DNA of 64,000 bases from an uncultured Sterolibacterium sp. (GCA_964521075.1 CAZFPI010000002.1:4548-68547); one strand, 5' to 3'; shown: positions 32,668 to 52,587, numbered from the stretch's first letter. Translations and numbers: made by a program. Notes: generated by a model not told the origin, from the letters alone.

Positions 32668-32782
32668 AATGCCCGGTTGGACGCGGAAAGAATCAGAGCC
32701 ATAATCCGCGTTCCGCCCGCAGATGCCCATCAATGATTTCACCCCGTTCCCGGGGGCCGGACAAGACAGGAAGACAGAAAAA

Positions 32783-34027
32783 ATGAAACGAGTAGATGAC
32801 TTCCGCCTGAAGTTCGGCAAGCACGAGCTGGTCCCCATCATGATCGGCGGCATGGGCGTCGACATTTCGACGGCCGATCTTGCCCTGGAAGTCGCCCGTC
32901 TGGGCGGGGTAGGCCACATTTCCGACGCCATGGTGCCCACGGTCGCCGACCGCCGGTTCAAGACGCACTTCGTCCGGGACAAGCTCAAACAATACAAGTT
33001 CAATGTCGCCAACGCCGACAAATCCGTCGTGCAGTTCGACCTGGGCCTGCTCGAAGAAGCCTCGCGCATGCATGTGGGCAAGACCATGGAAGCCAAACGC
33101 GGGCCGGGCATGGTGTTCGTAAACTGCATGGAAAAGCTCACCATGAACGCCCCGCGCGAAACCCTGCGGGTACGGCTCAGGGCCGCGCTCGATGCCGGGG
33201 TCGACGGCATCACGCTTTCCGCCGGGCTGCATCTGGGCTCCTTCGCACTGATCGAAGACCACCCCCGCTTTCGCGATGCCTATCTGGGCATCATCGTCTC
33301 CTCCTTGCGCGCCCTTCAGCTTTTTCTGCGGAAAAACGCCCGCGTCAATCGCCTGCCCGATTTCGTCGTCGTCGAAGGCCCGCTGGCCGGGGGCCACCTG
33401 GGCTTCGGCATGGACTGGGCAGAATATGACCTGGCCACCATCACCGCCGAAATCCAGACCTGGCTGAAAGCCGAAAGCCTCGACATTCCGCTCATCCCCG
33501 CCGGAGGCATCTTCACCGGCACGGATGCGGCCACCTTCCTCGAAAACGGCGCGGCCGCCGTGCAGGTTTCCACCCGTTTCACGGTCGCCAAAGAATGCGG
33601 GCTGCCCGAAAACGTCCAGCAGGAATACTTCAAGGCCAACGAAGACGACATCGAAGTCAACCTGCTCTCCCCCACGGGCTACCCCATGCGGATGCTCAAG
33701 CACTGCCCGGCCATCGGCTCCGGCATCCGCCCCAATTGCGAAGCCTTCGGCTACATCCTCGACGGCTCGGGCAAATGCGCCTACATCACCGCCTACAACA
33801 AGGCACTCGAAGCCAATCCGGACACCAAAACGCTCTCGGTCAAGGACAAAACCTGTCTTTGCACCCACATGCGAAATTTCGACTGCTGGACCTGCGGCCA
33901 CTACACCTACCGGCTCAAGGACACCACGCGCAAACTGGACGACGGCAGCTACCAGATACTGACCGCCGAACACATCTTCCGCGACTACCAGTACAGCACC
34001 GACCACCAGATCGCCCTGCCCGAGTGA
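32783..34027 (+). CDS. Nitronate monooxygenase (2-nitropropane dioxygenase, NMO) family FMN oxidoreductase
   Basis: 414 aa from the internal ATG. Sequence includes PIMIGGMGVDIS...LARLGGVGHIS...VVVEGPLAGGHLGF...IPAGGIFTG...GAAAVQVSTRF. Confidence 0.8.
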   Translation: MKRVDDFRLKFGKHELVPIMIGGMGVDISTADLALEVARLGGVGHISDAMVPTVADRRFKTHFVRDKLKQYKFNVANADKSVVQFDLGLLEEASRMHVGKTMEAKRGPGMVFVNCMEKLTMNAPRETLRVRLRAALDAGVDGITLSAGLHLGSFALIEDHPRFRDAYLGIIVSSLRALQLFLRKNARVNRLPDFVVVEGPLAGGHLGFGMDWAEYDLATITAEIQTWLKAESLDIPLIPAGGIFTGTDAATFLENGAAAVQVSTRFTVAKECGLPENVQQEYFKANEDDIEVNLLSPTGYPMRMLKHCPAIGSGIRPNCEAFGYILDGSGKCAYITAYNKALEANPDTKTLSVKDKTCLCTHMRNFDCWTCGHYTYRLKDTTRKLDDGSYQILTAEHIFRDYQYSTDHQIALPE

Positions 34028-34058
34028 GCAGGCACTTTCACACAGAGCAAAGCCCGTC

Positions 34059-35717
34059 ATGAAGTTTGATGATCGTGCCAACCGTCACGTCCCCGTATCC
34101 CCCCCCCTGGTCATCCACGATCCGGAACATCATTCCTGGGATGCCGAAACCGATGTCGCCATCGTCGGCATCGGCCTGGCCGGGGCGTCGGCGGCTCTGG
34201 AAGCTGCGAACCAGGGCGTTCGCGTTCTGGCACTCGACCGCCTGGCAGGCGGCGGAGCCTCCCGGCTTTCCGGCGGTGTGGTCTACACCGGTGGCGGCAC
34301 ACGGCAGCAGCGCGAAGCCGGTGTCGAGGACAGCCCGGACAATATGTTCGAATACCTCAAAATCCAGGTGGGTGGCGTCGTATCAGATGCCACCTTGCGC
34401 CGCTTCTGCCAAGACAGCGTAGCCAATCTCGAATGGCTGGAAAGCTTTGGGGTACGTTACGCCAGCCGCTACTACAAGGAAAAAAACTCCTTTCCCGGCG
34501 GCCACTGGGGCCTCTACCACTCCGGCAACGAAGCCTACGCCCCCTACAACGCGAACACGACCCCCGCCGCGCGGGGCCACATCACCCAGGGTAGCGGCTA
34601 TTTTGGCGGCCCGGCCGTCATGGACCCGCTGCTCCTTGCCATGCGCGCGCACCCGAAGGTCGAACTGCAAACCTACGCCTGCGTCCATCGCCTGATCGTT
34701 GACCCGCAAAATCGCATCATCGGTCTGGCCTACCGGCTAGGCCCCCAGTCCGGCCTGATCCCCGCCTTGCGGACGGGCCTGCACCGTCTGGCCAGCAAGA
34801 TCAACATCGGCATGCCGCGCGCAGGAGCCCCCTTCCGCTGGCTGGCCACACGCTTTGAAGCCTTCGACCGCGAAAAACAGGTGCGCGTCAAAAAAGGCGT
34901 CGTCCTCAGCGCGGGCGGCTTCGTTTTCAACCGCGCCATGATCGAACAGGCCACGGATGCCCCCATGCGTACCCCCCACGCACTGGGCGAAGACTGCAAC
35001 GGCAGCGGCATCCGCCTGGGGCTCACGCAGGGAGCCTCCACCGGCCGGATCGACCGGCTGACCTACTGGCGTTTCTACGCCCCGCCCCATGCCTGGCTCA
35101 ATGCCGTCAGCGTCGGGCTGAAAGGGCAAAGGCTGTGCAACGAAGCCCTTTATGGCGCGACAGTTGCCGACGACATGCTCGAAAAAAGCCAGGGACGCGG
35201 CTGGCTCATCCTCGATGCCCCACTGATGCAAGCCGCCCGGGCACAGCTTCGCCACGACAAGAGCATCGCCCTCGTGCAAAAGCTCATGAGCCTCATGTAC
35301 ATCTTCCGCTGCACCGCCCGGGCCGACAGCCTCGCCGGGCTCGCCGGCAAGATCGGCATCCCCGCTGCCGCGCTGGAACAAACCATCGCCCGTTACAACC
35401 AGGACATCGCCAGCGGCCAGCCCGACGAACACGCCAAGCCCGACAAATACCGCACAGCCATCACAACCGGCCCCTTCCTCGCCATCGACATCAGCATCGG
35501 CTCGAAATTCCCCTGCCCCACGCTGACACTGGGCGGCCTGAACGTGGAAGAAGACAGCGGCCGGGTTCTCGACGAGCAAAAAAACCCCATCCCGGGCCTC
35601 TACGCCGCCGGGCGAAACGCCGTCGGCCTGTGTGCACACACTTACATCAGCGGCCTTTCCCTGGCTGATTGCCTGTTCAGTGGGCGTCGGGCCGGGCGGC
35701 ATGCCGCCAACGGCTGA
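34059..35717 (+). CDS. FAD-dependent oxidoreductase, KstD / fumarate-reductase flavoprotein-like
   Basis: 552 aa with an N-terminal dinucleotide fold (DVAIVGIGLAGASAALEAANQGVRVLALDR...GGASRLSGG). The C-terminal LYAAGRNAVGL is typical of the FAD_binding_2 family. Confidence 0.7.
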   Translation: MKFDDRANRHVPVSPPLVIHDPEHHSWDAETDVAIVGIGLAGASAALEAANQGVRVLALDRLAGGGASRLSGGVVYTGGGTRQQREAGVEDSPDNMFEYLKIQVGGVVSDATLRRFCQDSVANLEWLESFGVRYASRYYKEKNSFPGGHWGLYHSGNEAYAPYNANTTPAARGHITQGSGYFGGPAVMDPLLLAMRAHPKVELQTYACVHRLIVDPQNRIIGLAYRLGPQSGLIPALRTGLHRLASKINIGMPRAGAPFRWLATRFEAFDREKQVRVKKGVVLSAGGFVFNRAMIEQATDAPMRTPHALGEDCNGSGIRLGLTQGASTGRIDRLTYWRFYAPPHAWLNAVSVGLKGQRLCNEALYGATVADDMLEKSQGRGWLILDAPLMQAARAQLRHDKSIALVQKLMSLMYIFRCTARADSLAGLAGKIGIPAAALEQTIARYNQDIASGQPDEHAKPDKYRTAITTGPFLAIDISIGSKFPCPTLTLGGLNVEEDSGRVLDEQKNPIPGLYAAGRNAVGLCAHTYISGLSLADCLFSGRRAGRHAANG

Positions 35718-35754
35718 CTCCATTCGTCTCCCCTCTGCTTTTTCAGGAATCCCC

Positions 35755-37434
35755 ATGACCACACCACAAGACAGCACCACCTATGATGTCATCGTCGTCG
35801 GCTCGGGAGCCGGTGCCATGCTCACCGCCGCGCGCGCCCACGATCTGGGGCTTTCCGTTCTCGTGGTCGAAAAGAGCGACAAATACGGCGGCACATCGGC
35901 GGTTTCCGGTGGCGCGATCTGGATTCCCAACAACAGCCAGATGAAAATCAAGGACAGCTACGACGACGCCCTGGCCTATGTCAAAGCCGCCACGCGCGGG
36001 CTTGTTGCGGAAGACCGTCTGCACGCCTATCTCGACAGCGCGCCGCAGATGGTCGAATACATCAACAGCAAGATGACACTCAACTACTTCCCCTGTCATC
36101 GCTACCCCGATTACTACCAGCACCTGCCGGGCTCCCGCCCGGGCGGGCGCACCATGGAACCCAATCTTTTCGATGCCTCCCTGCTCGGCGAAGAATTCGA
36201 CAACCTGCGCCTGTCCTACAACGGCACGCTCCTGATGGGCAAGGCCAGCATGACCGCCACACAAGCCCACGTCATGCTCTCCAAACAGCCTGGCTGGATG
36301 CTGCAGGTCATGAAAACCCTGGGCCGTTACTTCCTCGACATCCCCTGGCGTCTCAAAACGAAGCACGACCGGATTCGCGGTCTGGGCAACGCCATGGCCG
36401 CCGGCCTGCGCCACGCCCTTCTGGTTCGCAAGGTTCCGCTGTGGCTGAACACGCCTTTTGAATCACTGACCACCGAAGGCGGCCGCGTGACCGGCATCGT
36501 CGTCAAACGCAATGGCCAGACGCTCACGCTCACGGCCCGTCGTGGCGTTGTCCTCGGCGCGGGCGGTTTCGAGCGCAACCAGCAAATGCGCGAACAATAT
36601 CTGCCCAAACCCAGCAAAGCCGAATGGAGCGTGACCCCCCCGCACAACACCGGCGACACCATCCGCGCGGCCCAGGCCATCGGCGCGAAAACCGAGCTCA
36701 TGAACTGGGCCTGGTGGACACCCTCCATTCATGTGCCAGGCGAGCCCTATCAGGTGGGCCTCTTTGCCGAACGCAACCTTCCCGGCTGCATCGTGATCAA
36801 CGGCCAGGGCCAGCGTTTCGTCAATGAAGCCTCGCCCTATCTCGAATTCGGCGCGGCGATGTACGCGGAAAATGACAAGAACGGCAAGGGTGTGCCCTGC
36901 TGGCTGATCTTCGATGCCAAATTCCGCTACAACTACCCCATGGGCCCGCTCATGCCCAGCCAGATCGCCCCCGACCGCAAATCCTGGCTCGGCAAGGTGT
37001 ACTGGAAAGACGACACCCTGGACGGCCTGGCCAAACAAATCAACGTCGACGCCGCCGGCCTCAAAAAGACGGTGGAACTCAACAATGAATACGCGCAAAG
37101 CGGCAAGGACAAGGACTTCAACAAGGGCAGCAACGTCTTCGACTGCTACTACGGCGACTGCAACGTAAAGCCCAACCCCTGCATCGCCCCCATCCTCAAG
37201 GCCCCCTTCTACGCCATGCGCGTCGATGCAGGCGACATCGGCACCAAAGGTGGCCTGCTCACCGACAAGGATGCCCGCGTTCTCGACCAGAACAATCAAC
37301 CCATCGAAGGGCTGTTCTGCATCGGCAACAATTCCGCCTCCGTTATGGGCACGGCCTACCCCGGCGCGGGCGGCACACTCGGCCCGGCCATGACTTTCGG
37401 CTTCCGCGCTGCGAACTTCATCGCAGGAAAGTAA
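35755..37434 (+). CDS. 3-oxosteroid 1-dehydrogenase (KstD/AcmB)-like flavoprotein
   Basis: 559 aa from the internal ATG. Sequence includes YDVIVVGSGAGAMLTAARAHDLGLSVLVVEKSDKYGGTSAVSGGAIWIPNN...GDIGTKGGLLTD...GLFCIGNNSASVMG. Substrate unknown. Confidence 0.75.
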   Translation: MTTPQDSTTYDVIVVGSGAGAMLTAARAHDLGLSVLVVEKSDKYGGTSAVSGGAIWIPNNSQMKIKDSYDDALAYVKAATRGLVAEDRLHAYLDSAPQMVEYINSKMTLNYFPCHRYPDYYQHLPGSRPGGRTMEPNLFDASLLGEEFDNLRLSYNGTLLMGKASMTATQAHVMLSKQPGWMLQVMKTLGRYFLDIPWRLKTKHDRIRGLGNAMAAGLRHALLVRKVPLWLNTPFESLTTEGGRVTGIVVKRNGQTLTLTARRGVVLGAGGFERNQQMREQYLPKPSKAEWSVTPPHNTGDTIRAAQAIGAKTELMNWAWWTPSIHVPGEPYQVGLFAERNLPGCIVINGQGQRFVNEASPYLEFGAAMYAENDKNGKGVPCWLIFDAKFRYNYPMGPLMPSQIAPDRKSWLGKVYWKDDTLDGLAKQINVDAAGLKKTVELNNEYAQSGKDKDFNKGSNVFDCYYGDCNVKPNPCIAPILKAPFYAMRVDAGDIGTKGGLLTDKDARVLDQNNQPIEGLFCIGNNSASVMGTAYPGAGGTLGPAMTFGFRAANFIAGK

Positions 37435-37513: not shown

Positions 37514-38857
37514 TCACCAGGCCCAGTACGGGCCCTGGCCGATGGAGGTGTTGCGGTTCTCGATGGCAACGAAAACATCGCGGCCAAAGAAGAAAGGCAA
37601 GCCCCAGTCGAAGCTGTTGCCGTCGAGCACTTCCGTCCCGCCAACCGTGACCGCCCGGACGGATGCCGACAGACGATCCGGATTCTCCAGCGCGAAGCTG
37701 ACAACCTTGCTGAGGCCGCTGCGCGTCAGCTGCGTGGCAGACAGATTCAGCAAGGACGGCGGACAATAAAAATCCGTGGCGCGGGAGCAAACGGGGATGG
37801 AGGTATCCATGAAAAACAGCGCATTCGAGCCACTGTCGATGAAGCTCGCCGTCATGGTGCGGCCCTTGTAGACCGTCGTGAAATTACCCCGCGCATCAGT
37901 GGCGAAAACCGTAGCACTCCCTGGCTGATTATTCGTCCCGGTTCCGATGCCGAAAATCAACGATCCGGCCAGCCGCGCCACCCCACCGGCAGGCACGGCG
38001 GGCAGACGCACCAGCACCCCGTTGTTGTTGCGCGAAAAAGCCGTCACCGGATTTTTCGCCTGGCGCGCGCGCGGCAGAGCCGTCGGTGTACAGGCATTCC
38101 CGCTGCAAGCGTAATACACCCCGGGAATCGCCCGGGCTTCGCACGCCACGCCGCAATCTTCCGCAAACAGGCCGATGCCCAGAATCCCCTTCGCCCCCAT
38201 CTCAGCCACCGTCCGCCAGCCGGGCCCCACACTGCTGCAATCGCCGGGGGCCACCTCTGGCACACTCGAATCCCCGATGATCTGGACGGGCAAGGCACTG
38301 GCCAGCTCGCCCGCAATCCGCACATCCGCCGAGCGCATGGCCCCCCAGGTATGCCCCGAGGCAAACTGGCCACAGGCACCGGCGAGTTGCCCGGAGGGGG
38401 TTCTGACTTCCGGCAAGGCCCAGGGAGCCGCCAGTGCCCGGCCGATCAGGCGCAAACCGGAAGAACCGGTATCAACCAGAACGTGGTCGATGGTCTGGCA
38501 GTTCTGGCTGCCCGGCACACAAACCGTCACATCGACAAATAGCGCATTGATCGAAGCACTGCCGAAGGGGCCGCCGTCGATGGAGATCGGTGCGACATTG
38601 GTGAGGGAATCTGGCGTGGGCGCAGGTGCGGGGGCAGGTGTCCCCGGTGCAGCGGGTGCATCGCTGCCGCCCCCGCCGCCATTGCAGGCTGCCAGTAAAA
38701 AACACAGTGCCCAGGCGGCAAGAAAGCCAAGGAAACGATGACTTATTCCGTTCGCCCTGAGCCTGTCGAAGGGAATCTCCTGTAATAACAAGGGCTTCGA
38801 CAAGCTCAGCCCGAACGGATCTGATTTAATCAGTGCCTCCCTAAAGCGCATCGGCAT
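37514..38857 (-). CDS. DUF3443-type lipoprotein with pepsin-like (A1 aspartic protease) signature motifs
   Basis: 447 aa with a lipobox (LLAAC at about residue 57). Motifs are VDTGSSGL (D129), GILGIGL (about 224), IDSGSNALFF (D341), and C-terminal LPFFFGRDVFV. The start is uncertain (ATG at 38857 or 38851), and the pre-signal extension is long. Confidence 0.7.
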   Translation of the reverse strand: MPMRFREALIKSDPFGLSLSKPLLLQEIPFDRLRANGISHRFLGFLAAWALCFLLAACNGGGGGSDAPAAPGTPAPAPAPTPDSLTNVAPISIDGGPFGSASINALFVDVTVCVPGSQNCQTIDHVLVDTGSSGLRLIGRALAAPWALPEVRTPSGQLAGACGQFASGHTWGAMRSADVRIAGELASALPVQIIGDSSVPEVAPGDCSSVGPGWRTVAEMGAKGILGIGLFAEDCGVACEARAIPGVYYACSGNACTPTALPRARQAKNPVTAFSRNNNGVLVRLPAVPAGGVARLAGSLIFGIGTGTNNQPGSATVFATDARGNFTTVYKGRTMTASFIDSGSNALFFMDTSIPVCSRATDFYCPPSLLNLSATQLTRSGLSKVVSFALENPDRLSASVRAVTVGGTEVLDGNSFDWGLPFFFGRDVFVAIENRNTSIGQGPYWAW

Positions 38858-38866
38858 CCTCCCGGC

Positions 38867-39313
38867 TCAGTGAATTCCGGCGGGATCAAACCCCGCAGGC
38901 AGCATGGCCGGTAACCACGCCCGCCCCGTGAAGGCGCGCATATGCCCCCCCGAGAACAGCACCAGATCAGGCCGCTGAATCACGACCTGCGAACGCCCGG
39001 CCATCGGCAGTCTGGCCGTCTCGGCGACAAAAACATCGAAATGACTCCCCAGCAATTCGCGCAGATCCGGCATGAACGGCCCGGCCCAGGCCAGCGCGAA
39101 CACCCGCCCGCCTGCCGCCACATACTCGTGCACCACGACACCATTGGCCCGGCTCGTCGTCTGTACGCTGTAATCCGCCCCGGCGGGCGTGGCGAAATGG
39201 CGGGTCTCGTCGCTGGCCCCAGGGGCATCGCCCAGGGCGGCCAGGCAGGTTCCCGCGAAAAGCGGCAAGCCCAGAAAGATCAGCAGCTGAAAAATGGAAC
39301 GCAGAAATGTCAC
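38867..39313 (-). CDS. DUF2844-like secreted protein
   Basis: 148 aa with a signal peptide (IFQLLIFLGLPLFAGTCLA). It lies 9 nt upstream of the DUF3443 gene. The family call is from memory of a recurrent DUF2844-DUF3443 pairing. Confidence 0.55.
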   Translation of the reverse strand: MTFLRSIFQLLIFLGLPLFAGTCLAALGDAPGASDETRHFATPAGADYSVQTTSRANGVVVHEYVAAGGRVFALAWAGPFMPDLRELLGSHFDVFVAETARLPMAGRSQVVIQRPDLVLFSGGHMRAFTGRAWLPAMLPAGFDPAGIH

Positions 39314-39763: not shown

Positions 39764-40810
39764 TCATGCCATAAGGGAACGGTAGCGGTATCGCCCGTCG
39801 GCATCCTGAAAACGCTCGAGCCTGCCTTGTCGGGCCAGATGTGTCAGATGCGCCAGTGCTTCGCCCATGGCCATCATCTCGTCCATGGGAGCGTCGATGG
39901 CGCGATGGGCAAAAAGCTGGCGGGAGGCTTCGTAAGCGGTGGGCGTGGCGGTGGCGCAAATCCGAAAGAGGGTGTCGAGCTGGTTTTGGTGGTGGCGGTG
40001 TAGCTGGGCCACGCGGGTGGCCAGGCCGCGATAGGGCAGGTCGTGGGAAGGCAGGATCAGCGTGTCTTCCGGGAGCTGGCTCAGACGATCCAGCGAATCG
40101 AACCAGCCAGCGAGCAGATCGGCTTCGGGTTCAGTCGGCAAGACGCTGACGTTGGAGGTGATGCGGGGCAAAAGCTGGTCACCGGCGATCAGCACGCCTT
40201 CTTCGGCGCAGTGGAGCAGCATGTGTTCGGTGACATGGCCTTCGCCCAGATGAAGTTGCCAGCTTCGCTCGCCCAGCCTGAGCGTTTCGCCATGACGCAG
40301 GCGGCGGAAGCTGGCGGGCGGATCGCTGACCAGTTTTCCGGCGGCGCAAAGCATGGCGTAGATGGCGGGCAGGCGGTCATCAGGCATGCCCGACCGGTAA
40401 AAATACTGCCGGTGCGCCCAGGGCAGTTCGTCGCCCTGCCGGGTGTGGGTGGCCAGAACACGCAGGGTGTAATACTCGCCGTGGCTGATGTAGAAGGGGA
40501 CTTGCAGCCGGTCGATGAGCCAGCCTGCAAGGCCCGCGTGGTCGAAGTGATGATGGGTGCACAACACGCCCGTGAGCGGGCAGCCCGCCAGCGGGCCGTC
40601 AAAGAGCTGCACCCACAGCTGGCGTGTGCGCTCGTCCCCGATGCCGGTGTCGACGAGCAGCCAGCCTCCATCATCGCGGATCAGGTAAAGGTTGATGTGG
40701 TCGAGGGCCAGCGGCAGCGGCATCCGCAGCCATTTGACGTTTGGCGTGAGATCGAACACCTCCACCCCGGGCCGGGGTGGTTCGGTGCAGGGGTAGTGCA
40801 GGGTGTCCAA
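39764..40810 (-). CDS. MBL-fold metallo-hydrolase
   Basis: 348 aa with the HxHxDH motif (LCTHHHFDHAG). It has a TTG start 2 nt after the upstream acyl-CoA dehydrogenase stop. Confidence 0.8.
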   Translation of the reverse strand: MDTLHYPCTEPPRPGVEVFDLTPNVKWLRMPLPLALDHINLYLIRDDGGWLLVDTGIGDERTRQLWVQLFDGPLAGCPLTGVLCTHHHFDHAGLAGWLIDRLQVPFYISHGEYYTLRVLATHTRQGDELPWAHRQYFYRSGMPDDRLPAIYAMLCAAGKLVSDPPASFRRLRHGETLRLGERSWQLHLGEGHVTEHMLLHCAEEGVLIAGDQLLPRITSNVSVLPTEPEADLLAGWFDSLDRLSQLPEDTLILPSHDLPYRGLATRVAQLHRHHQNQLDTLFRICATATPTAYEASRQLFAHRAIDAPMDEMMAMGEALAHLTHLARQGRLERFQDADGRYRYRSLMA

Positions 40811-40812
40811 AC

Positions 40813-41988
40813 TCAGCGCGAACGCGGCATACGAAGGCCAAACTGGGCGATGAGATCACGCTGGAGTTCGTTCACGCCACCGCCGAAGGTGTTGATGGTG
40901 GCGGCGCGGTACTCTTCTTCGAGCAGCCCCTTGAATTCCGCCGCTTCGCTGCCGAGGCGATACAGGCCGCCCATGCCGAGAATTTCCAGCAGGCGACGGA
41001 AGACGAAGATCATGGTTTCGGAACCATAGACCTTGGAGGCCGAGGCCAGGCCGACATCCATGCGACCGGCGTTCAGGTCGCAGGAGATGCGGTAGTTGAG
41101 CAGACGCATGGCTTCGATCTGGCTGTAGGCTTCGGCCAGGGCGCGGCGAACCCAGGGCTCGTCGACGGCGCGACGGCCGTTTTCGTCCGGTGTCTTGGCC
41201 CAGGCGAGCACTTTCTGGAAGGCCCCCGTCGCCTTGACGCCGAACGCGCCGAGGCCGACACGTTCATGATTGAGCTGCGAGGTGATGAGCTTCCAGCCGC
41301 CGTGAAGCTGCCCAACCAGCATGTTGGCGGGCACTTTGACGTTGTCGTAGTAGGTGGCGTTGGTGCGGTGGCCGACGGTGTGGATGGGCGTGAGCGAATA
41401 GCCGGGCAGTTTCGTGTCGACGATGAGGATGGAAATGCCTTTGTGGCGTTTTTCCTCCGGATGGGTGCGGCAGGCGAGCCAGATGTAGTCGGCCGATTCG
41501 GCATCGGAAGTGAAAAGCTTGCTGCCGTTGACGACGAAGTGGTCGCCTTCCTGCACCGCGCTGGTGGAGAGCGTGGCCAGATCCGTACCCGCATTGCCTT
41601 CGGTGTAGCCGATGGCGAAATGCAGTTCGCCCGCAGCGATGCCGGGCAGGAATTTTTTCTTGTGCTCTTCGGAGCCGTTGGCCATGAGGGCCGGGCCGAC
41701 GGTGTTGACCGTCACGAAGGGGAGGGTTGCGCCGGCCAGAAACACTTCTTCGAAGAAGATGAGCTGTTCGATCGGCGTGTAGCCACGGCCGCCGTATTCC
41801 TTGGGCCAGCCGACGGCCAGCCAGCCGTCACGGCCCATCTGGCGGCAGAGGTTCTTGTAGGCTTCATGACGTTCGTCGCCGTCTTCACGACGCAGGGCGA
41901 CGCGAATTTCTTCGGTCATGATCTTGTTGAAATAGGCGCGGATTTCCTTGCGTAGCGCCTTTTGTTCCGGGGTCAAATCGACAAACAT
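40813..41988 (-). CDS. Acyl-CoA dehydrogenase (ChsE/FadE-like subunit retaining the C-terminal catalytic-Glu motif)
   Basis: 391 aa. Sequence includes IGYTEGNAGTDLA...VVNGSKLFTS... and the C-terminal FGGGVNELQRDLIA. Confidence 0.85.
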   Translation of the reverse strand: MFVDLTPEQKALRKEIRAYFNKIMTEEIRVALRREDGDERHEAYKNLCRQMGRDGWLAVGWPKEYGGRGYTPIEQLIFFEEVFLAGATLPFVTVNTVGPALMANGSEEHKKKFLPGIAAGELHFAIGYTEGNAGTDLATLSTSAVQEGDHFVVNGSKLFTSDAESADYIWLACRTHPEEKRHKGISILIVDTKLPGYSLTPIHTVGHRTNATYYDNVKVPANMLVGQLHGGWKLITSQLNHERVGLGAFGVKATGAFQKVLAWAKTPDENGRRAVDEPWVRRALAEAYSQIEAMRLLNYRISCDLNAGRMDVGLASASKVYGSETMIFVFRRLLEILGMGGLYRLGSEAAEFKGLLEEEYRAATINTFGGGVNELQRDLIAQFGLRMPRSR

Positions 41989-42030
41989 GTTTGATCTTTC
42001 GCGGTCAGGTTGGGCCAGTTGGCAAGGGAA

Positions 42031-43143
42031 TCAGAGTTCGACGCCGACGGTTTCCGGCTTCGCCAGCCAGTCGCCCAGGGCTTGCAGGTCGGCTGTCGCG
42101 CCGCCTAACGAGAGCTCCAGCGCGCGGCTCCAGTAGAGGAAACGGTGGATCGGGTAGCTCACGTCGGAGCCCATGCCGCCGTGCATGTGGGAGCAGGCGT
42201 GGGAGACGCGATGGGCGCATTCGCAGGCCCAGTATTTGGCAACACGCGCCGCACCTTCGGCTTCGAGCCCGTTGTCCAGTCGCCAGCACAGTTGCCAGAG
42301 GGTCGAGCGCAGGGCTTCGATGTCGATGTAGCAGTCTGCCGAACGCGCGCCGATGACCTGGAAGCTGCCGATGGGGCGGTCGAACTGGATACGCTGGCTG
42401 GTGTATTCGACGGTGCGGCGCAGGTCTTCGGCGGCCACCCCGAGTTGCAGCGCGGCCAGGCAGGCCAGCGCGCGCTGTTCCAGCCAGGGCAAGGCTTCAG
42501 GCGGCAGGGCGTGGTCGTTGCCCACGAGTGCCGATTTGAAAATCAGGTCGGCGGCGGGTTCGGCGTGGGTCAGCATGCCTTTCGTCTTTTCGATGCCCGG
42601 GGTCGTGGATTCGATGATGAACAGGCGCGCGCCTTCTGGGGTTTCGGCGGCAACGATCGCAAGCTGTGCCGTAGCACCCAGCGGCACGGCGACGGCGCGG
42701 CCATCGAGCTGCCAGCCCTGCGGCGTGAGCCGGGCTTGCAGGGGCTGGCCACGCGAGGCCGAAAGGCCGTCGAGGGAGAGCGTGGCCAGTGCCGTGCCCG
42801 CCAGCAGTTTTTCCAGCCAGGCGGCCTTGAGCGAAGCCGGGGCGAATTTCGCCAGCGCGGCGGTGGCAAGCTGCTGACGCCACAGCGGAACGGGGGCGAC
42901 GAAGCGGCCTTGCTGTTCGAGGGCGAGCATGAGTTCGGTCATGCCCAGCCCGCTACCGCCGTCGGCTTCGGGGAGGGTCAGGCCCAGCAGGCCGGTTTCG
43001 GCGAGCTGTTGCCAGAGGGCTGCGTCGTAGTCCTTGCCGCTATCCCAGAAGGCACGAATCTGGTCGTCGTTGCAGTAGTCGGCGAACACGCTGCCCGCCA
43101 TGTCGGCGATGGCGCGTTGTTCTTCGCTGAAATCGAAATTCAT
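42031..43143 (-). CDS. Acyl-CoA dehydrogenase family protein (second, divergent subunit)
   Basis: 370 aa from the internal ATG (MNFDFSEEQRAIADM...). The equivalent C-terminal motif reads LGGATADLQAL, with no Glu at the aligned position by eye. Confidence 0.8.
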   Translation of the reverse strand: MNFDFSEEQRAIADMAGSVFADYCNDDQIRAFWDSGKDYDAALWQQLAETGLLGLTLPEADGGSGLGMTELMLALEQQGRFVAPVPLWRQQLATAALAKFAPASLKAAWLEKLLAGTALATLSLDGLSASRGQPLQARLTPQGWQLDGRAVAVPLGATAQLAIVAAETPEGARLFIIESTTPGIEKTKGMLTHAEPAADLIFKSALVGNDHALPPEALPWLEQRALACLAALQLGVAAEDLRRTVEYTSQRIQFDRPIGSFQVIGARSADCYIDIEALRSTLWQLCWRLDNGLEAEGAARVAKYWACECAHRVSHACSHMHGGMGSDVSYPIHRFLYWSRALELSLGGATADLQALGDWLAKPETVGVEL

Positions 43144-43302
43144 ATCGATGATCCTTGTTGATGTTCCGCTTGACACCGTTCGCCCCGTAGGGGCAACCTT
43201 TACGGTTGCCCTTGCCAAAGGAAGCCCCCCTCTCGAGGGTTCCCTTCGGTCACAGGCGCAGCCCGAACGGGAAAGGTACTGCGCGCTTGCGTCACCCGCC
43301 GC

Positions 43303-44481
43303 TTACATTCTGCCCAGAATCGCCCCGCCCGTCGGCACGCCGACGCCGGAGGTGACGAGTGCGTGTTTCACGTCCTTCTTCGGTTGATTGACCGAGGTGC
43401 CACGGACCAGGCGCGTGGCTTCGACGATGCCATTAACACCGTGAATGTAGGCCTCCGACAATTGACCGCCGTGGGTGTTGGTCGGCAGGCGGCCATTCGG
43501 GCGCAGATTGCCGTCGAGCACGAACTTCGCCGCTTCGCCGAATTCACAGAAGCCCCAGGATTCGAGCTGCATCAGGACGATGGAGGAGAAGGCGTCATAA
43601 ATGACGGCGGCGTCGATGTCCTTCGCGCTCAAACCGCACTGGGCGTAGGCGTGTTTGGCGGCGATGTCCATTTCGGGGATGCGGCCGATTTCGGCGCGGT
43701 AGAAGGAGGTCATCTCCTCCTGATCCTTGGGCGAACACTGGGCCACACCGTTGATGAGCACACCGGGCTGTTTGAGGTCGCGGGCGCGCTCGGGAGTGGT
43801 GACGATCACTGCAGAGCCGCCGTCGCTTTCCTGGCAGCAGTCAAAGAGACGCAGCGGGTCGCAGATGCGGCGGGCGTTGTTGTAATCAGCACGGGTGAAG
43901 GGCTGGTTGTAGAAGAAGGCCGCCGGGTTCTTGACGGCGTATTCACGCGTGGTGTGGGCGATTTCGAACAGGGCGTCTTCGGTGCAGCCGGTCAGGTGCA
44001 TGTAACGCTGGGTGTACATGGCGACCCAGGAGGTCGGGGTAAGCAGGCCGTAGGGCGTGTACCAGCCGTAGTGGATCGCGCTGCCGGTAATCAGCGAGCC
44101 GGACACGCCTGCCGAGTAGCGGTGGCCCGAACGGCCATTGAGCGCGCGGTAGCAGACCACCACTTCGGCCATGCCGGTGGCGACTGCCATGGCCGCCTGC
44201 AGCAGTGTGCCGGTGGCAGCCCCGCCGCCGTAAGGCACGCGGGAGAAGAAGCTCAGGTCGTTGCAGCCGAGCGCGCGGGCGACGTCGACCTCTTCGTTCT
44301 GGTCCATGGTGAAGGTCACCATGCCGTCGACGTCGGAAGCCTTGAGGCCAGCGTCGTCGAGCGCGGCGCGAACGGCTTCGGCGGCGAGCGACAGCTCCGA
44401 GCGGCCGGAGTTCTTGGAGAATTCCGTCGAGCCGATGCCGACGATGGCGGATTTATTGGCGATATTGGCAACCATGTTCAA
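43303..44481 (-). CDS. SCP-x / Ltp-type thiolase-fold protein (Ltp2-like aldolase/thiolase)
   Basis: 392 aa. Sequence includes IVGIGSTEFSKNSGRS...GGGAATGTLLQAAMAV... and the C-terminal THGGQLSEAYIHGVNG. It overlaps the upstream MaoC gene by 4 nt. Confidence 0.8.
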   Translation of the reverse strand: MNMVANIANKSAIVGIGSTEFSKNSGRSELSLAAEAVRAALDDAGLKASDVDGMVTFTMDQNEEVDVARALGCNDLSFFSRVPYGGGAATGTLLQAAMAVATGMAEVVVCYRALNGRSGHRYSAGVSGSLITGSAIHYGWYTPYGLLTPTSWVAMYTQRYMHLTGCTEDALFEIAHTTREYAVKNPAAFFYNQPFTRADYNNARRICDPLRLFDCCQESDGGSAVIVTTPERARDLKQPGVLINGVAQCSPKDQEEMTSFYRAEIGRIPEMDIAAKHAYAQCGLSAKDIDAAVIYDAFSSIVLMQLESWGFCEFGEAAKFVLDGNLRPNGRLPTNTHGGQLSEAYIHGVNGIVEATRLVRGTSVNQPKKDVKHALVTSGVGVPTGGAILGRM

Positions 44482-44906
44482 GCCTCCTTGGGCAGGGCGA
44501 CTCGCACCGTGCCGTTCATATGCGTGCCCCAGACGTTATTCACTCCTTCCACCGCGACCGAGACCACGCCGGTGGCGTCATCCTTGGCCTTGACTTCGCC
44601 GGTGATGGTCATGACGAAACCGGGCAGATTAGGGGCACCCAGCTTGATGTCGATGCCTTTCAACGTCGAGTCCGGGCCGGCCCAGTCGGTGACGAAGCGG
44701 CCCATGAAGCCGTTGCTGGTGATGATGTTCATGAAGACATCGGAAAGCCCGGTGGCCTGGGCAACTTTCTTGTCGTGGTGCACGGGCGTGAAATCGCGCG
44801 AAGCCAGGGCAGAGCCGATGATGAGGCCGGAGGTGATGTCGATCTTCAACTCGGGCAGCTTGTCGCCGACTTTCACCTGGCCGTATTTCAGGGTATTCAG
44901 ATTCAT
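44478..44906 (-). CDS. MaoC-like (R)-hydratase hot-dog subunit (ChsH1-like)
   Basis: 142 aa. Sequence includes ASRDFTPVHHDKKVAQATGLSDVFMNIITSNGF. Confidence 0.75.
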   Translation of the reverse strand: MNLNTLKYGQVKVGDKLPELKIDITSGLIIGSALASRDFTPVHHDKKVAQATGLSDVFMNIITSNGFMGRFVTDWAGPDSTLKGIDIKLGAPNLPGFVMTITGEVKAKDDATGVVSVAVEGVNNVWGTHMNGTVRVALPKEA

Positions 44907-44924
44907 GATGTTTTCTCTCCGTAA

Positions 44925-45890
44925 TCAGGCCAGATAGAACTGTGGCAGCCAGGTCTTTTCATCTACCTTTTCGACCTTGCCCTTGACCTTCATGCCGATC
45001 TTGATGGCTTCCGGCTCGCAGCCAACGAGGTTGGCGACGAGGTTCGTGCCTTCGGAGAGCTTCACGACGGCGCAGATGAGCGGGTAGGGGTAGCCCGGGA
45101 ATTTCGGGTAGTGCATCTGGGTGAAGCTGATGATCTCGCCTTCGAGTTTCGATTCGATCGAATCCCATTCGGTGGACTGGCATTCGCCGCACATCGGGCG
45201 CGGTGGGTGGCGCAGGGTGTTGCAGCTCTTGCAACGCTGGATCAGGAGTTTGCCGGCATCGACGGCTTCCCACCACCAGGCGTTGTCGTGGCCACGCGGC
45301 GAGGCAATGCGGGTGGCCACGGCGGGCGTGGCATCGGCTTCAGAAGCAGCGGCCGGGGCGGCATCGGCATTGGGGATGAATTTCAGGCAGCGGAAGACCT
45401 GACGGCCGACTTCTTCCTTGTTCTGGTCGGTGAAGGTGGTGGTCGTCTCGATGAAGTAGCCCACGCCACGCTGTGTTGCCTTGGGTTCGGAGATGCTGGA
45501 GATGATGGTGTGGGCAAACACCTGGTCATCCGGACGCAGATCGCGGAAGTATTCGCTGTTGGTGTTGGTGCCGAGCACGCCGGTAAAGCCATGGGCATCG
45601 AAAACATTGTGCAGTTCGCGTTGCAGGTCGACGGCCGGCTTCTGGCACATGGGGTAGCCTTCCATGCTCCAGATCTGCAGCATGGTCGGCGGCGCGATGA
45701 TGCCTTTTTTGCCTGACTTCGCCGCTGCGGCCTCGTCGGTATAGACGGGGTTTTCGTCACCCGTGACTTCAGCCCAGTGACGGATCATGGCTTTGTTGAC
45801 ATCATCCTTGCCGCGCTTTGGCGCGCCAAGTTCCCGGCCGACATAGGCACGAATCTTTTCTTCAAACGCCTTGGTTTCTTCAGGAGTCAT
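44925..45890 (-). CDS. MaoC-N-like hot-dog domain fused to DUF35 zinc-ribbon/OB-fold domain (ChsH2-like architecture)
   Basis: 321 aa. The N-terminal part includes IRHWAEVTGDENPVYTD. An Ala-rich linker follows. The DUF35 part has CKSCNTLRHPPRPMCGECQS plus an OB fold (ISFTQMHYP...VVKLSEG...GMKVKG). Confidence 0.75.
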   Translation of the reverse strand: MTPEETKAFEEKIRAYVGRELGAPKRGKDDVNKAMIRHWAEVTGDENPVYTDEAAAAKSGKKGIIAPPTMLQIWSMEGYPMCQKPAVDLQRELHNVFDAHGFTGVLGTNTNSEYFRDLRPDDQVFAHTIISSISEPKATQRGVGYFIETTTTFTDQNKEEVGRQVFRCLKFIPNADAAPAAASEADATPAVATRIASPRGHDNAWWWEAVDAGKLLIQRCKSCNTLRHPPRPMCGECQSTEWDSIESKLEGEIISFTQMHYPKFPGYPYPLICAVVKLSEGTNLVANLVGCEPEAIKIGMKVKGKVEKVDEKTWLPQFYLA

Positions 45891-46094: not shown

Positions 46095-46112
46095 TTGGCA
46101 AACACTTGCCAA
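46095..46112. promoter_or_regulatory. Perfect palindrome TTGGCAA-ACAC-TTGCCAA upstream of the TonB-dependent receptor gene
   Basis: A 7-bp inverted repeat with a 4-bp spacer, 37 bp upstream of the proposed TTG start at 46149. It is a candidate operator with no known cognate regulator. Confidence 0.3.
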
Positions 46113-46148
46113 CTGCCTGTTTCCTCCCCCGAATCTCAGGAGAATCCC

Positions 46149-48608
46149 TTGAATAAATTCGTCAAAAAACCCGCTTCGCTCACGCTGAGCCTGGCCATTG
46201 CCCAGCTCTTCGCCGCACCGGTTTACGCCCAGGCCACCAAGGCCGCCGATGCGCCCCAGACCGGTGCCATCGAAGAAGTCATCGTGACCGCGCAAAAGCG
46301 CAAGGAAAACCTGCAAGACGTGCCAATCTCCATCCAGGCACTGGGCATGAAGGACATCGAAAAGCGCAACATCGTCACTCTGTCCAATATCGGCGCGGAA
46401 GTCCCCGGCCTCAATCTCGCCCCCTACCCGGGCAGCAGCGAAGCCTTCTTCCCCACCTTCCGCGGCATCACCACCAACGCCGTGTTCGTCAGCGCGCCCA
46501 ACCCCGTCGCCTTCCACGTCGATGGCGTCTTCCGCTCGCAGCTCGTGGGCCTGAACAATGCCGCAGGCGACATCGAACGTATCGAAGTTCTGAAAGGCCC
46601 GCAAGGCGTGCTCTCCGGCCGTAACGCCACGGGCGGTGCGGTCAATCTGCATTACGCCAAGGCCGACCTCGACGGCTTCGGCTTCAAGCAACAGCTCACC
46701 TTCGCCAATCGCGGCCAACTCGTTTCCAAGACGGTCGTCAATCTGCCGATCAAGGACGACCTGGCCATGCGTCTGTCCTATCTGCATCGCCAGAAAGACA
46801 GCGACGGCGTGACCAACTCTGCCCCGGGCGGTGTGCAGTTCGGCAAGCTCAATGGCGATGGCTATCGCGTCGATATCCGCTGGAAACCCAGCTCGGCCTT
46901 CACGATGGACTACGCTTACGACAACACTGAAACCAAGAGCTACGACACGCCGCCGCAGTGCCTGATCGCCGGGAATGGCGCGCGTGGCTATCAGGGTGGA
47001 CTGAACTACTTCCTTTGGGATCCTCGCGTGGCGGCCTATGCCAACGGGTGCTCCAGAGACAAGCTCGACAAGCTTTCCGTACCGTTCAATTTTGCCAAGA
47101 ACGTAAACAAGACCGAGGCACATACCCTCAATATCAACTGGGAAGTCGATCCGAAGCTGACCATTCGCTCGATCACCGGCTACAACGTGGTGGATACGCT
47201 CAACCATTACCACTACGGTGCTTACGCGGGGGGAGCGGATGTGCGCCAGGATAGCTATCCGACCACCTTCATGACAGCCACCGGCCCGATGGCACTGGGC
47301 CAGCCGATGGTGCTGTACAACAAGTCCTGGTCGCAGGAATTCCAGTTCCTGGGCGATGTCTCGAAGACGCTCAAGTACACCACCGGGCTTTATTTCTCGA
47401 CGGAAGAGGGATACCAGCATTCCGGGCCCAATATCGGTGTGTATCTGCCCTCCATCATGGCAGGCCAGGTCCCCCCGGCATTGACCGGCTTCAACGATCT
47501 TCTGATGATCGACCACAAGGGGCTGACTTCCTCGAAGAGCGATTCCTGGGCGATCTTCGCCCAGGTGACCTGGACACCGGACATCCTGGACAGCAAGCTG
47601 GACATCGTCCCGGGTCTGCGTTTCACCCGCGACCATCGTACTGCGGTGGGTTACAACTTCGGCTGGGATCAAACCTATGTGGTCAATCCCCTCATCAATA
47701 CTGCGGTCGGCTTCGGCCCGGGAACCGGTGGCCCCAACATCACGCCGTTTAACAATGTTTCCGGCGATCGCAAGTGGACCAAGACCACCCCGGCCGTTTC
47801 CTTCAACTACCACTGGCAAAAAGACCTGATGACCTACTTCAAGTATTCATCGGCCTACACCAGTGGCGGCTTCGACCCCATCGCCGGCCCGGGTAACGGT
47901 GCGGCAGCCTTTGCCAACGGCTTCGATCCGGAAACGATCAAGTCCATCGAAATGGGTGTGAAGGGCGAGTTCCTGGAGCGTCGTCTGCGGACCAACCTGG
48001 CGGTCTTCCAGAGCAAGTTCACCAACGAGCAGAAATCGACGGCCCAGGCTTCGAATGGCTGGCAGACGGTGAACGTCGGTCGTTCGACCTATCAGGGTCT
48101 GGAGCTGGATGTGACAGCCTCTTTGACCGACAGCCTGCGTCTGGGCCTGAACTACGCCTACCTGCACCACAAGTACAACCAGTGGATCGACCCTGTCAGC
48201 AAGGTGGATGTCACGGCACAGCGCGACCTGATCGTACCGAAGAACGATTACGCGGTGAATCTCGACTATCGTTTCCCGAACTTCGGCTTGCCCGGCAAGC
48301 TCGATGCCAACCTGAACTTCACGCACAAGGACGCCACTTCGACGCCGATCGCGCTGAACATCCCCTACATTCCCGATCCGCGTACGCCGCTGACCACGCC
48401 GGCATACAGCCTGTGGAACGCACGCCTGGCTCTCTCGCAGATCAAGGCGGGCCCGAAGGATGAAGGCCGGGTGACGGTTGCCTTGTGGGCGAAGAACATC
48501 ACCAACAAGAAGTACCTCATCATGGCCAACCCGGGCTGGGCAACAGAAATGTCCGGTAACTGGGGCGAGCCGCGCAGCGTCGGGATGGACCTGATCTACA
48601 AGTACTAA
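46149..48608 (+). CDS. TonB-dependent outer-membrane receptor
   Basis: TTG start with AGGAG 6 nt upstream. The signal peptide is LNKFVKKPASLTLSLAIAQLFAAPVYAQA. The plug region has EEVIVTAQKRKENLQDVPISI. The C-terminal beta-barrel ends ...SVGMDLIYKY, with an aromatic terminal residue. Confidence 0.9.
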   Translation: MNKFVKKPASLTLSLAIAQLFAAPVYAQATKAADAPQTGAIEEVIVTAQKRKENLQDVPISIQALGMKDIEKRNIVTLSNIGAEVPGLNLAPYPGSSEAFFPTFRGITTNAVFVSAPNPVAFHVDGVFRSQLVGLNNAAGDIERIEVLKGPQGVLSGRNATGGAVNLHYAKADLDGFGFKQQLTFANRGQLVSKTVVNLPIKDDLAMRLSYLHRQKDSDGVTNSAPGGVQFGKLNGDGYRVDIRWKPSSAFTMDYAYDNTETKSYDTPPQCLIAGNGARGYQGGLNYFLWDPRVAAYANGCSRDKLDKLSVPFNFAKNVNKTEAHTLNINWEVDPKLTIRSITGYNVVDTLNHYHYGAYAGGADVRQDSYPTTFMTATGPMALGQPMVLYNKSWSQEFQFLGDVSKTLKYTTGLYFSTEEGYQHSGPNIGVYLPSIMAGQVPPALTGFNDLLMIDHKGLTSSKSDSWAIFAQVTWTPDILDSKLDIVPGLRFTRDHRTAVGYNFGWDQTYVVNPLINTAVGFGPGTGGPNITPFNNVSGDRKWTKTTPAVSFNYHWQKDLMTYFKYSSAYTSGGFDPIAGPGNGAAAFANGFDPETIKSIEMGVKGEFLERRLRTNLAVFQSKFTNEQKSTAQASNGWQTVNVGRSTYQGLELDVTASLTDSLRLGLNYAYLHHKYNQWIDPVSKVDVTAQRDLIVPKNDYAVNLDYRFPNFGLPGKLDANLNFTHKDATSTPIALNIPYIPDPRTPLTTPAYSLWNARLALSQIKAGPKDEGRVTVALWAKNITNKKYLIMANPGWATEMSGNWGEPRSVGMDLIYKY

Positions 48609-48839: not shown

Positions 48840-49751
48840 TCAGCCTGACGATGCTGCGGCTGACATCGCCTGGCTGACGCGCGATGCGGGGAGGCGGTTC
48901 AGCTGCGCGCTGATCCAGGCGGCGGTGTCGACCAGGCGGCCGAGATTGACGCCCGTGCCGATTCCCAGCCCCTGCATCAGCCAGACGACTTCTTCGGTGG
49001 CGACATTGCCCGATGCTCCGGGTGCGTAGGGGCAGCCGCCCAGACCGGCGACAGAGCTATCGAAAACACGGATGCCCACTTCCATCGCAGCGTAGATATT
49101 GGCGATGGCCATGCCATAAGTGTCGTGAAAATGCCCTGCCAGCCGTTCGACGGGCACATCGCGGGCAACCGCTTCGATCATGGCCTGGGCCTTGCGGGGA
49201 GTCCCCGCGCCGATGGTGTCGCCCAGGCTGATTTCCTCAACACCCATTTCAAAAAGGGCACGGGCAAGCCGGCGAACATCGTCGGGAGGAATCTCGCCTT
49301 GCCAGGGGCAAACGAGCGCGCAGGAGACATAGCCGCGCACGGCCACACCCGAGGCCCGTGCCCGGGTAATGACGGGCTCGAAACGACGCAGCGATTCGTC
49401 GATGCTGCATTGGATGTTTTTTTGCGAAAAGGCTTCCGAGGCAGCGGCGAAAACGGCGATTTCGTCAACTCTCGCCGCCAGGGCACCGGCCATACCCTGT
49501 GCATTGGGCACAAGCGCGGAATAGCGCACTCCGGGCAAACGGGGAAGCCCGGCCAGTACATCGCCGCTCCCTGCCATCTGCGGCACACGGCGGGGAGAGA
49601 CGAAAGCCCCCGCCTCGATATGCCGTAGTCCGCAGGCGGCAAGACGTTCGATCAGGGCAATCCTGTTTTCAACGGAAACAGGCCGGGGCTCGTTTTGCAA
49701 GCCATCTCGCGGGCCAACTTCGACGATACGGACTTCGGTGGGCAGCTTCAT
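48840..49751 (-). CDS. liuE: Hydroxymethylglutaryl-CoA lyase
   Basis: 303 aa. Sequence includes VEVGPRDGLQNE...HFHDTYGMAIANI...GLGGCPYAPGASGNVATE. It is the last gene of the liu operon. Confidence 0.9.
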   Translation of the reverse strand: MKLPTEVRIVEVGPRDGLQNEPRPVSVENRIALIERLAACGLRHIEAGAFVSPRRVPQMAGSGDVLAGLPRLPGVRYSALVPNAQGMAGALAARVDEIAVFAAASEAFSQKNIQCSIDESLRRFEPVITRARASGVAVRGYVSCALVCPWQGEIPPDDVRRLARALFEMGVEEISLGDTIGAGTPRKAQAMIEAVARDVPVERLAGHFHDTYGMAIANIYAAMEVGIRVFDSSVAGLGGCPYAPGASGNVATEEVVWLMQGLGIGTGVNLGRLVDTAAWISAQLNRLPASRVSQAMSAAASSG

Positions 49752-52578: not shown

Positions 52579-52587
52579 GGGGCATCC

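Follow-up and report, generated by a model that had tools for sequence, protein, structure and literature searches.

A minus-strand operon of six open reading frames (ORFs; 45890->39764) was analysed in a 64,000-nucleotide DNA stretch (hereafter the window) from an uncultured Sterolibacterium sp. (GCA_964521075.1, CAZFPI010000002.1:4548-68547). It encodes five steroid side-chain enzymes followed by a metallo-beta-lactamase-fold (MBL-fold) hydrolase, and very probably serves as the C22 module, for the three-carbon side chain, in the oxygen-independent breakdown of sterols by this betaproteobacterium of the genus Sterolibacterium. Gene content, orthology, catalytic residues, synteny and phylogeny of the operon were established in the present analysis.

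The operon contains the complete igr-type gene set

An earlier reading of the window, made from the sequence alone (the sequence-only reading), had proposed an igr-like set of ChsH2, ChsH1, Ltp2, ChsE1 and ChsE2 components on the minus strand. The six ORFs were recovered at the same coordinates and with the Pfam architectures it had described, and the best PDB match of each of the five enzymes was the corresponding chain of an actinobacterial steroid enzyme. In order of transcription, the features of the operon are as follows.

44925..45890, minus strand: ChsH2-like non-catalytic hydratase subunit (Pfam PF13452, PF12172 and PF01796; PDB 6ok1_B, 4wnb_A)
44478..44906, minus strand: ChsH1-like catalytic MaoC hydratase subunit (Pfam MaoC; PDB 4wnb_B)
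43303..44481, minus strand: Ltp2-type retro-aldolase with thiolase fold (Pfam Thiolase_C_1, SCP-x type; NCBIfam NF005892/PRK07855; PDB 6ok1_A)
43144..43302, minus strand: intergenic spacer of 159 nt within the operon (sequence)
42031..43143, minus strand: ChsE1-like (FadE28-type) non-catalytic acyl-CoA dehydrogenase (ACAD) subunit (Pfam; PDB 6wy8_A, 4x28_D)
40813..41988, minus strand: ChsE2-like (FadE29-type) catalytic ACAD subunit (Pfam, all three ACAD domains; PDB 6wy8_B, 4x28_A)
39764..40810, minus strand: MBL-fold hydrolase, the final gene (Pfam PF00753, Lactamase_B, and PF21221, B_lactamase-like_C)

The genes are tightly packed, with gaps of 18 nt between the two hydratase genes, 42 nt between the two ACAD genes and 2 nt between the second ACAD gene and the MBL gene, and with a 4-nt overlap between the ChsH1-like stop codon and the ltp2 start. 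The sole loose join is the structured 159-nt spacer between ltp2 and the first ACAD gene, which contains two short GC hairpins and a weak terminator-like match at 43239-43225. A gap of ~30-185 nt, judged from the ends of tblastn high-scoring segment pairs, is found at this position in four relatives (L007, L009, L045 and L104). A promoter and terminator scan returned sites no more numerous than in shuffled sequence.

The first ACAD ORF as listed runs to the TTG at 43218, but the gene most likely starts at the ATG at 43143, because AAGGA lies 11 nt upstream of this ATG and homology begins at MNFDF. The Pfam middle domain was not detected in this ChsE1-like protein.

The hydratase subunits correspond to a ChsH1/ChsH2-type pair

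The ChsH2-like protein consists of an N-terminal FAS1_DH/MaoC-N hot-dog domain, a zf-ChsH2 ribbon of Cys4 type (C220, C223, C234 and C237) and an OB_ChsH2_C (DUF35) domain. Its DUF35 tail matched ChsH2(DUF35) of Thermomonospora curvata (6ok1_B, E = 3e-31) and its hot-dog domain matched ChsH2 of Mycobacterium tuberculosis (4wnb_A, E = 3e-28). In the motif GDENPVYTD, Asp45 is kept and the catalytic His is replaced by Tyr50, a substitution that is the hallmark of ChsH2 (PMC11321319). The ChsH1-like protein matched M. tuberculosis ChsH1 (4wnb_B, E = 4e-27) and carries the dyad Asp37/His42 in RDFTPVHHD. The pair therefore has the composition of a heteromeric MaoC hydratase, with the Asp/His dyad confined to the ChsH1-like subunit, and Tyr for His, the ribbon and the OB domain on the ChsH2-like subunit.

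Only one of the two acyl-CoA dehydrogenases carries a catalytic base

Each of the two adjoining ACAD genes matches a chain of its own in the heterotetramers 6WY8 and 4X28. The product of 42031-43143 matched 6wy8_A (E = 5e-73) and 4x28_D (E = 1e-56), and that of 40813-41988 matched 6wy8_B (E = 7e-123) and 4x28_A (E = 1e-115). The catalytic base was located by aligning both proteins with the isovaleryl-CoA dehydrogenase (IVD) encoded in the window itself (54222-55412). The result showed that the 40813-41988 protein has Glu242, within LNHER, at the IVD/LCAD-type helix-G base position, where its partner has Arg. Both proteins have Gly at the MCAD-type base position (FGGG and LGGA), so that the 42031-43143 protein has no Glu at either position.

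The sequence-only reading had located the base in the C-terminal motif FGGGVNELQRD of one ACAD, the other having LGGATADLQAL at the aligned place. Both motifs are present, but they do not mark the base position: in the alignment, the Glu of NELQR falls opposite the Glu of SEIRR in IVD, which is conserved but non-catalytic. Its proposal of a heteromeric dehydrogenase nevertheless held, with Glu at the base position in one ACAD only. In M. tuberculosis, E241 of ChsE2 is reported to be the catalytic base (Thomas & Sampson 2013). On this ground and by gene order, 40813-41988 is assigned as the putative ChsE2-like catalytic subunit and 42031-43143 as its putative ChsE1-like partner. In enzymes of this type only the alpha subunit bears the catalytic Glu (PMC10925408).

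The thiolase-fold protein is an Ltp2-type aldolase

The Ltp2 protein matched T. curvata Ltp2 (TcLtp2; 6ok1_A) with E = 1e-143 and 482 bits, and scored 596 bits against NCBIfam PRK07855 (Ltp2-type lipid-transfer protein), whose curated cut-off is 469. Tyr295 (in Y-D-A-F) and Tyr345 (in EAYIHG) align with Tyr294 and Tyr344, the base and the acid of TcLtp2, respectively (PMC12329534). The putative nucleophile loop, whose position was judged by eye, reads YGGGAATG, and there is no Cys across residues 74-109.

Pairs of a DUF35 protein and a thiolase-fold protein are common in non-steroid pathways, weak matches to BbsA/BbsB and PhlB/PhlC were obtained, and a liu/atu-like cluster lies next door, all of which could be read as signs of a non-steroid module, working as hydratase/aldolase or as thiolase, of the BbsAB, isoprenoid or alkylsuccinate kind. 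Such a module is scarcely credible here. The operon proteins scored only 33 bits against BbsA (cut-off 250) and 89 bits against BbsB (cut-off 750), and the aldolase scored 482 bits against 6OK1 versus 82 bits against 7PXP; moreover, the Ltp2 Tyr pair is conserved, and both steroid-specific heteromeric enzymes, the hydratase and the ACAD, are encoded. The BbsAB or aromatic reading was rejected on these scores, which are far below the NCBIfam equivalog cut-offs. The sequence-only reading had itself named BbsAB-type affinity as the outcome to set against a steroid role; with PRK07855 well above its cut-off and BbsA and BbsB far below theirs, the profile comparison favours the steroid reading, and phylogeny likewise placed the protein inside the Ltp2 family.

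A phylogenetic tree of 70 Ltp2 sequences was built by an IQ-TREE quick search under LG+C20 and rooted with a distant paralog from the same genome. The window sequence fell within the Ltp2 family, grouped with sequences of Sterolibacterium/Rhodocyclaceae (SH-aLRT 98), and this group was nested in a gammaproteobacterial Cellvibrionales/Halieaceae clade (supports 97-100). The proteobacterial clade stood apart from an actinobacterial clade (support 99) that also contained a second Myxococcota copy. The nearest Ltp2 loci in public genomes (92-96% identity) come from metagenome-assembled genomes (MAGs) labelled Sterolibacterium or Rhodocyclaceae. The gammaproteobacterial affinity of the Sterolibacterium Ltp2 fits the 'patchwork' origin that has been proposed for the pathway.

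The two types also differ in their residues. Ala297 of the window Ltp2 occupies the position of TcLtp2 His296, and Y-D-A-F was found in 52/52 proteobacterial-type sequences and Y-D-H-F in 36/36 of actinobacterial type. Only five columns part the two types at >=90% conservation, one of them being Ser342 versus Gly, three residues before the catalytic Tyr. In TcLtp2, His296 is assigned to the oxyanion hole and its replacement costs 14-fold (PMC12329534). Since the cost is only 14-fold, Ala297 is better regarded as a subfamily difference than as grounds for exclusion from Ltp2. With Ala in place of this His, mechanistic details may differ, and Ser342 could compensate for the lost His.

Some further Ltp2 loci were observed. 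The genomes behind four Myxococcota loci (L039, L041, L048 and L049) have two Ltp2 copies ~7-8 kb apart, the Y-D-A-F copy lying in a full ACAD-ChsH2-ACAD-ChsH1-Ltp2 cassette and the Y-D-H-F copy adjoining a stand-alone DUF35-like ORF. Two loci binned as Bacteroidota, in a Cryomorphaceae MAG (L029) and a Chitinophagaceae MAG (L057), encode Ltp2 almost identical to Halioglobus-type or Lentzea-type sequences of the tree, and these contigs are probably binning contaminants rather than transfers.

The cassette is orthologous to the acd2 cluster of Sterolibacterium denitrificans

In the review summary of S. denitrificans Chol-1S (PMC6678751), the acd1 and acd2 clusters are described as cholesterol-induced and as encoding side-chain removal by aldolytic cleavage. 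According to its Fig. 11 legend, SDENCHOL_10299 is ACS2 (an acyl-CoA synthetase, ACS), 10300/10301 are ACADs, 10302 is unknown and 10303 is an MBL; SDENCHOL_10304 is phytoene-dehydrogenase-like, 10305 is the C22 acyl-CoA synthetase, 10306/10307 are ACADs, 10308 is an aldolase and 10309/10310 are enoyl-CoA hydratases (PMC6678751). On this description, acd2 has the same five enzymes as the window in the same order and orientation, both clusters include an MBL gene, and the window differs by having neither the ACS nor the phytoene-dehydrogenase-like gene that acd2 carries between the MBL and the ACADs. Together with the G229 comparison below, this makes the window operon the ortholog of the described acd2 cluster, carried here by another species of the genus, and its MBL is the counterpart of the 'putative metallo-beta-lactamase' named in that summary (PMC6678751). 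A thioesterase role for the MBL is only a guess.

A genome of the same genus, G229, was available as one 3.0-Mb contig. Its gene order is ACS2-like, ACAD, MBL, gap, ACS, ACAD, ACAD, Ltp2, ChsH1 and ChsH2, which reproduces the published arrangement of SDENCHOL_10299-10310. At ~85% DNA identity across the cassette, the amino acid identities to the window were 94.6% (ChsE2-like), 82.5% (ChsE1-like), 95.9% (Ltp2), 98.6% (ChsH1) and 91.0% (ChsH2), with 72% for the MBL. Relative to G229 (L104:9274-12680), ~3.4 kb containing the ACS and the phytoene-dehydrogenase-like gene are missing at window 40810-40815, exactly where the MBL start meets the ACAD stop; as a result, the MBL gene abuts the ACAD gene in the window.

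The region downstream of the ACAD genes is variable in this lineage, with a cNMP-gated transporter in L045 and an AAA_21 ATPase, the synthetase, the MBL and the transporter in L007. In the latter, a related MAG, the ATPase, which is AbiEii-like, and a small ORF have been inserted so as to part the synthetase from the ACADs (L007:9670-11552), and this suggests an insertion hot-spot downstream of the cassette.

Matches to PRK07855 above the cut-off were found in 9/151 sampled genomes of the same GTDB family, including all three species of the window's genus, and in 2/201 genomes of the order sample. This patchy distribution is as expected for a specialised, transferable catabolic module.

Comparison with characterized side-chain modules

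The component set and domain architectures are those of the M. tuberculosis igr operon (cyp125-chsE1-chsE2-chsH2-chsH1-ltp2) and of the T. curvata enzymes (ChsH1-ChsH2-Ltp2 and Tcur3481-Tcur3483). The solved structures from these two sources are 4X28, 4W78/4WNB, 6OK1 and 6WY8. The likeness extends to the Tyr/Tyr pair of the aldolase, the Asp/His dyad in ChsH1 only, the single catalytic ACAD subunit and the Cys4 DUF35 protein. In contrast to igr, the window has the hydratase-aldolase block before the ACADs, lacks cyp125 and has an oxygen-independent pathway context; its Ltp2 has Y-D-A-F/Ser342 where the igr and T. curvata enzymes have Y-D-H-F/Gly, and the corresponding clades are separate and well supported.

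The sequence-only reading had presented the Gram-negative setting as a point of interest. This setting is not unusual: the cassette has been published for S. denitrificans, as far as the review summary describes it (PMC6678751), and for bile-acid-degrading Proteobacteria (PMC8399759). A Gram-negative host is thus no surprise, because most bacteria that degrade the side chain, Pseudomonas stutzeri Chol1 and Comamonas testosteroni among them, have kept the cassette with similar synteny (PMC8399759). The Scd2AB/heteromeric hydratase/Sal2 module of these two organisms, set beside the window by its published description, is the same cassette in Gram-negative hosts: its ACAD and its DUF35-bearing MaoC hydratase are both heteromeric, and its aldolase lacks Cys (PMC8399759). 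Unlike the setting proposed for the window, it acts in the aerobic 9,10-seco bile-acid pathway (PMC8399759).

Beta- and gammaproteobacteria use this cassette to degrade bile acids (PMC8399759), and the window Ltp2 clade is nested among gammaproteobacterial sequences; both facts would be compatible with a bile-acid role for the operon. We regard such a role as unlikely, given that Sterolibacterium is known as a cholesterol-degrading genus and that the orthologous cluster is reported, in the review summary, to be cholesterol-induced (PMC6678751). A further point against it is that the ribbon of the ChsH2-like protein is Cys4, as in the cholesterol-type TcChsH2, but the argument from C3H1 fingers concerns Shy and not C3 modules (PMC12329534).

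The CtShy-CtSal system, which acts on a C5 side chain (PDB 9MYR), resembles the window in pairing a thiolase-fold aldolase with a preceding hydratase whose DUF35 tail serves, or in the window would serve, as its docking site. Shy, which has a C3H1 finger, is a homomeric catalytic enzyme, and Sal has Tyr302/Cys304 in Y-D-C-Y (PMC12329534), whereas the window hydratase is predicted to be heteromeric, its ribbon is Cys4 and its aldolase has Y-D-A-F. The window Ltp2 scored 140 bits against 9myr_A versus 482 bits against 6ok1_A. A Shy/Sal C5 reading was rejected on the absence of His in the ChsH2-like protein, the Cys4 ribbon, the Y-D-A-F motif and the low 9myr_A score.

Proposed function of the operon

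By homology to characterized enzymes, the substrates, complex formation and induction of the operon can be predicted as follows. The ChsE1-like/ChsE2-like pair would form a heteromeric FAD dehydrogenase, with its base Glu242 only in the 40813-41988 subunit, and would desaturate 3-oxo-pregn-4-ene (or pregna-1,4-diene)-20-carboxyl-CoA at C17-C20. Hydration of the double bond would then fall to the ChsH1-like subunit (Asp37/His42). The steroid rings would be held by the hot-dog domain of the ChsH2-like subunit (His to Tyr50), whose zinc-ribbon/OB tail would dock an Ltp2 dimer. With Tyr295 as base and Tyr345 as acid, Ltp2 may catalyse the retro-aldol split of the 17-hydroxy intermediate into propionyl-CoA and androst-4-ene- or androsta-1,4-diene-3,17-dione. 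Ring A would subsequently be the target of the neighbouring AcmB and delta-4 flavoprotein, after which the 2,3-seco pathway would take over.

The cassette might instead act at another retro-aldol step, either in an earlier side-chain cycle (C27 or C24) or at the acetyl-CoA-releasing ring-A step of the 2,3-seco pathway. S. denitrificans has been proposed to use aldolases, not thiolases, in side-chain degradation; no genes have yet been assigned to the ACAD, hydratase and aldolase required for ring-A breakdown (PMC11780191); and the genome has four further ACAD pairs and several SCP-x-like genes. Nevertheless, this alternative is highly improbable, because all five proteins best match C3-specific actinobacterial enzymes and the ring-A candidates were reported beside atcABC/SRAH (PMC11780191) rather than at this locus. 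In addition, six genes of the genome match PRK07855, and the window Ltp2 alone passes the cut-off. The next match (365 bits, Y-D-C-F; contig C35, L106:5103-10978) is encoded beside two family III CoA-transferases and two crotonase-type hydratases. This locus is a different CoA-dependent module; the idea that it is a Sal-type partner module was rejected, the neighbours being CoA-transferases and crotonases, not MaoC/DUF35 genes.

Several observations weigh against assigning the operon to the C22 step of an oxygen-independent route. The oxyanion-hole His of TcLtp2 is Ala in the window protein. The assembly, which is 97.5% complete, yielded no close ortholog of the C22 acyl-CoA synthetase that relatives carry in the cluster, the best matches being 22-27% identical. 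It is a review summary of Warnke et al. 2017 (PMC6678751) that ties the S. denitrificans cluster to the C22 step. Finally, no KshA_C domain was found in the genome, which fits the anoxic route, but this negative is weak evidence for absence of the aerobic route, because no control genome had a true KshA.

In view of the first two points, a more specific proposal can be offered tentatively, as possible but rather doubtful. In the Gram-negative clade of Ltp2 (Sterolibacterium, Cellvibrionales/Halieaceae, one Myxococcota copy and Binatia), Ala always replaces the oxyanion-hole His, coupled with the change of Gly to Ser three residues before the catalytic Tyr. This clade may be a distinct catalytic variant that stabilises the thioester enolate differently from the one solved structure, and this species may have shed the C22 synthetase, its module perhaps being fed via another ligase or a CoA-retaining route.

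The assignment to the C22 module would mark this small (2.6 Mb) uncultured Sterolibacterium-type genome as that of a sterol side-chain degrader, and the operon provides a set of clean orthologs with which anoxic sterol turnover in the environment could be monitored. Because the cassette has been published, as have its enzymology and its occurrence in Proteobacteria, no new question is raised. The new points are modest: the strict A297/S342 signature parting proteobacterial-type from actinobacterial-type Ltp2, the gammaproteobacterial affinity of the Sterolibacterium genes and the lineage-specific reshuffling of the cluster.

Genome background and neighbouring genes

The assembly comprises 2.64 Mb in 184 contigs. 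Hallmarks of a Gram-negative bacterium in the window include ChpA/PilJ, a secretin, type II secretion system-type E/F proteins, a TonB receptor and a cytochrome cd1 nitrite reductase (nirS). Elsewhere in the genome, an EB_dh gamma-type gene, an ethylbenzene-dehydrogenase-like molybdenum alpha subunit (2ivf_A, 555 bits), nine molybdenum-pterin matches and an AtcA-like MoCoBD gene were found, in addition to the four further ACAD pairs and the SCP-x-like genes. This inventory fits that expected of the oxygen-independent sterol pathway.

The neighbours named by the sequence-only reading (an NMO-family enzyme, two KstD-like flavoproteins and a TonB-dependent receptor) were found as described, both flavoproteins being of the FAD_binding_2 family. 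The steroid setting proved stronger than it had supposed, the host being itself a relative within the genus Sterolibacterium and one of the two 'KstD-like' neighbours being an AcmB ortholog. The neighbouring features are as follows.

46095..48608, plus strand: TonB-dependent receptor (Pfam Plug and beta-barrel)
35632..37434, plus strand: AcmB ortholog, cholest-4-en-3-one/3-ketosteroid delta-1-dehydrogenase (PDB 7p18_A)
34059..35717, plus strand: 3-ketosteroid delta-4-(5alpha)-dehydrogenase-like flavoprotein (NCBIfam NF005511, 607 bits, cut-off 466)
32723..34027, plus strand: NMO/FabK-like FMN oxidoreductase (Pfam PF03060)

The product of 35632..37434 scored 1093 bits against S. denitrificans AcmB (7p18_A) over residues 48-599 and is a near-identical ortholog; because homology begins at residue 48, its true start is probably near 35761. 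The gene sits 2.3 kb from the end of the operon. The best PDB match of the 34059..35717 flavoprotein was the 3-ketosteroid delta-4-(5alpha)-dehydrogenase of Rhodococcus jostii (4at0_A, E = 4e-59), making it a candidate ring-A delta-4 reductase/dehydrogenase that might perform the delta-4 reduction opening the 2,3-seco pathway, a step whose gene is still unassigned (PMC8399759).

The NMO-type, delta-4-KSTD-like and AcmB genes stand in a row after glmS (32723-37434). The first two are syntenic with glmS in G229 as well (DNA match G229:C1:37293-42279). AcmB lies between this glmS-NMO-delta-4 flavoprotein block and the cassette in the window, unlike in G229, where it is far from the cassette (541 kb versus 350 kb) and ~500 kb from the glmS block. 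The TonB receptor gene is divergent from the operon across a 204-bp region. It adjoins the cassette in five related MAG loci, L007, L009, L010, L045 and L050 (65-72% amino acid identity), and in the genome G310, and in G229 it is located elsewhere and not beside the cassette.

Adjoining the TonB receptor gene on its other side is a complete liu-type cluster (48840-56340; IVD, MCCase beta, hydratase, MCCase alpha and HMG-CoA lyase, all Pfam-confirmed) with a divergent SDR gene. A pair of DUF2844 and DUF3443 (lipoprotein) genes occupies 37514-39313, between AcmB and the operon, and has no DNA-level counterpart at that place in G229. Just upstream of the signal peptide of the DUF3443 lipoprotein (LLAAC lipobox) lies a palindromic REP-like element of ~115 bp (38729-38844), which translates as ...FGLSLSKP...FDRLRANG. 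The start listed for the DUF3443 ORF (38857) is therefore probably too far upstream. Many contigs, both of this genome and of the two same-genus genomes, carry copies of the element at 70-92% identity, some of them matching on both strands.

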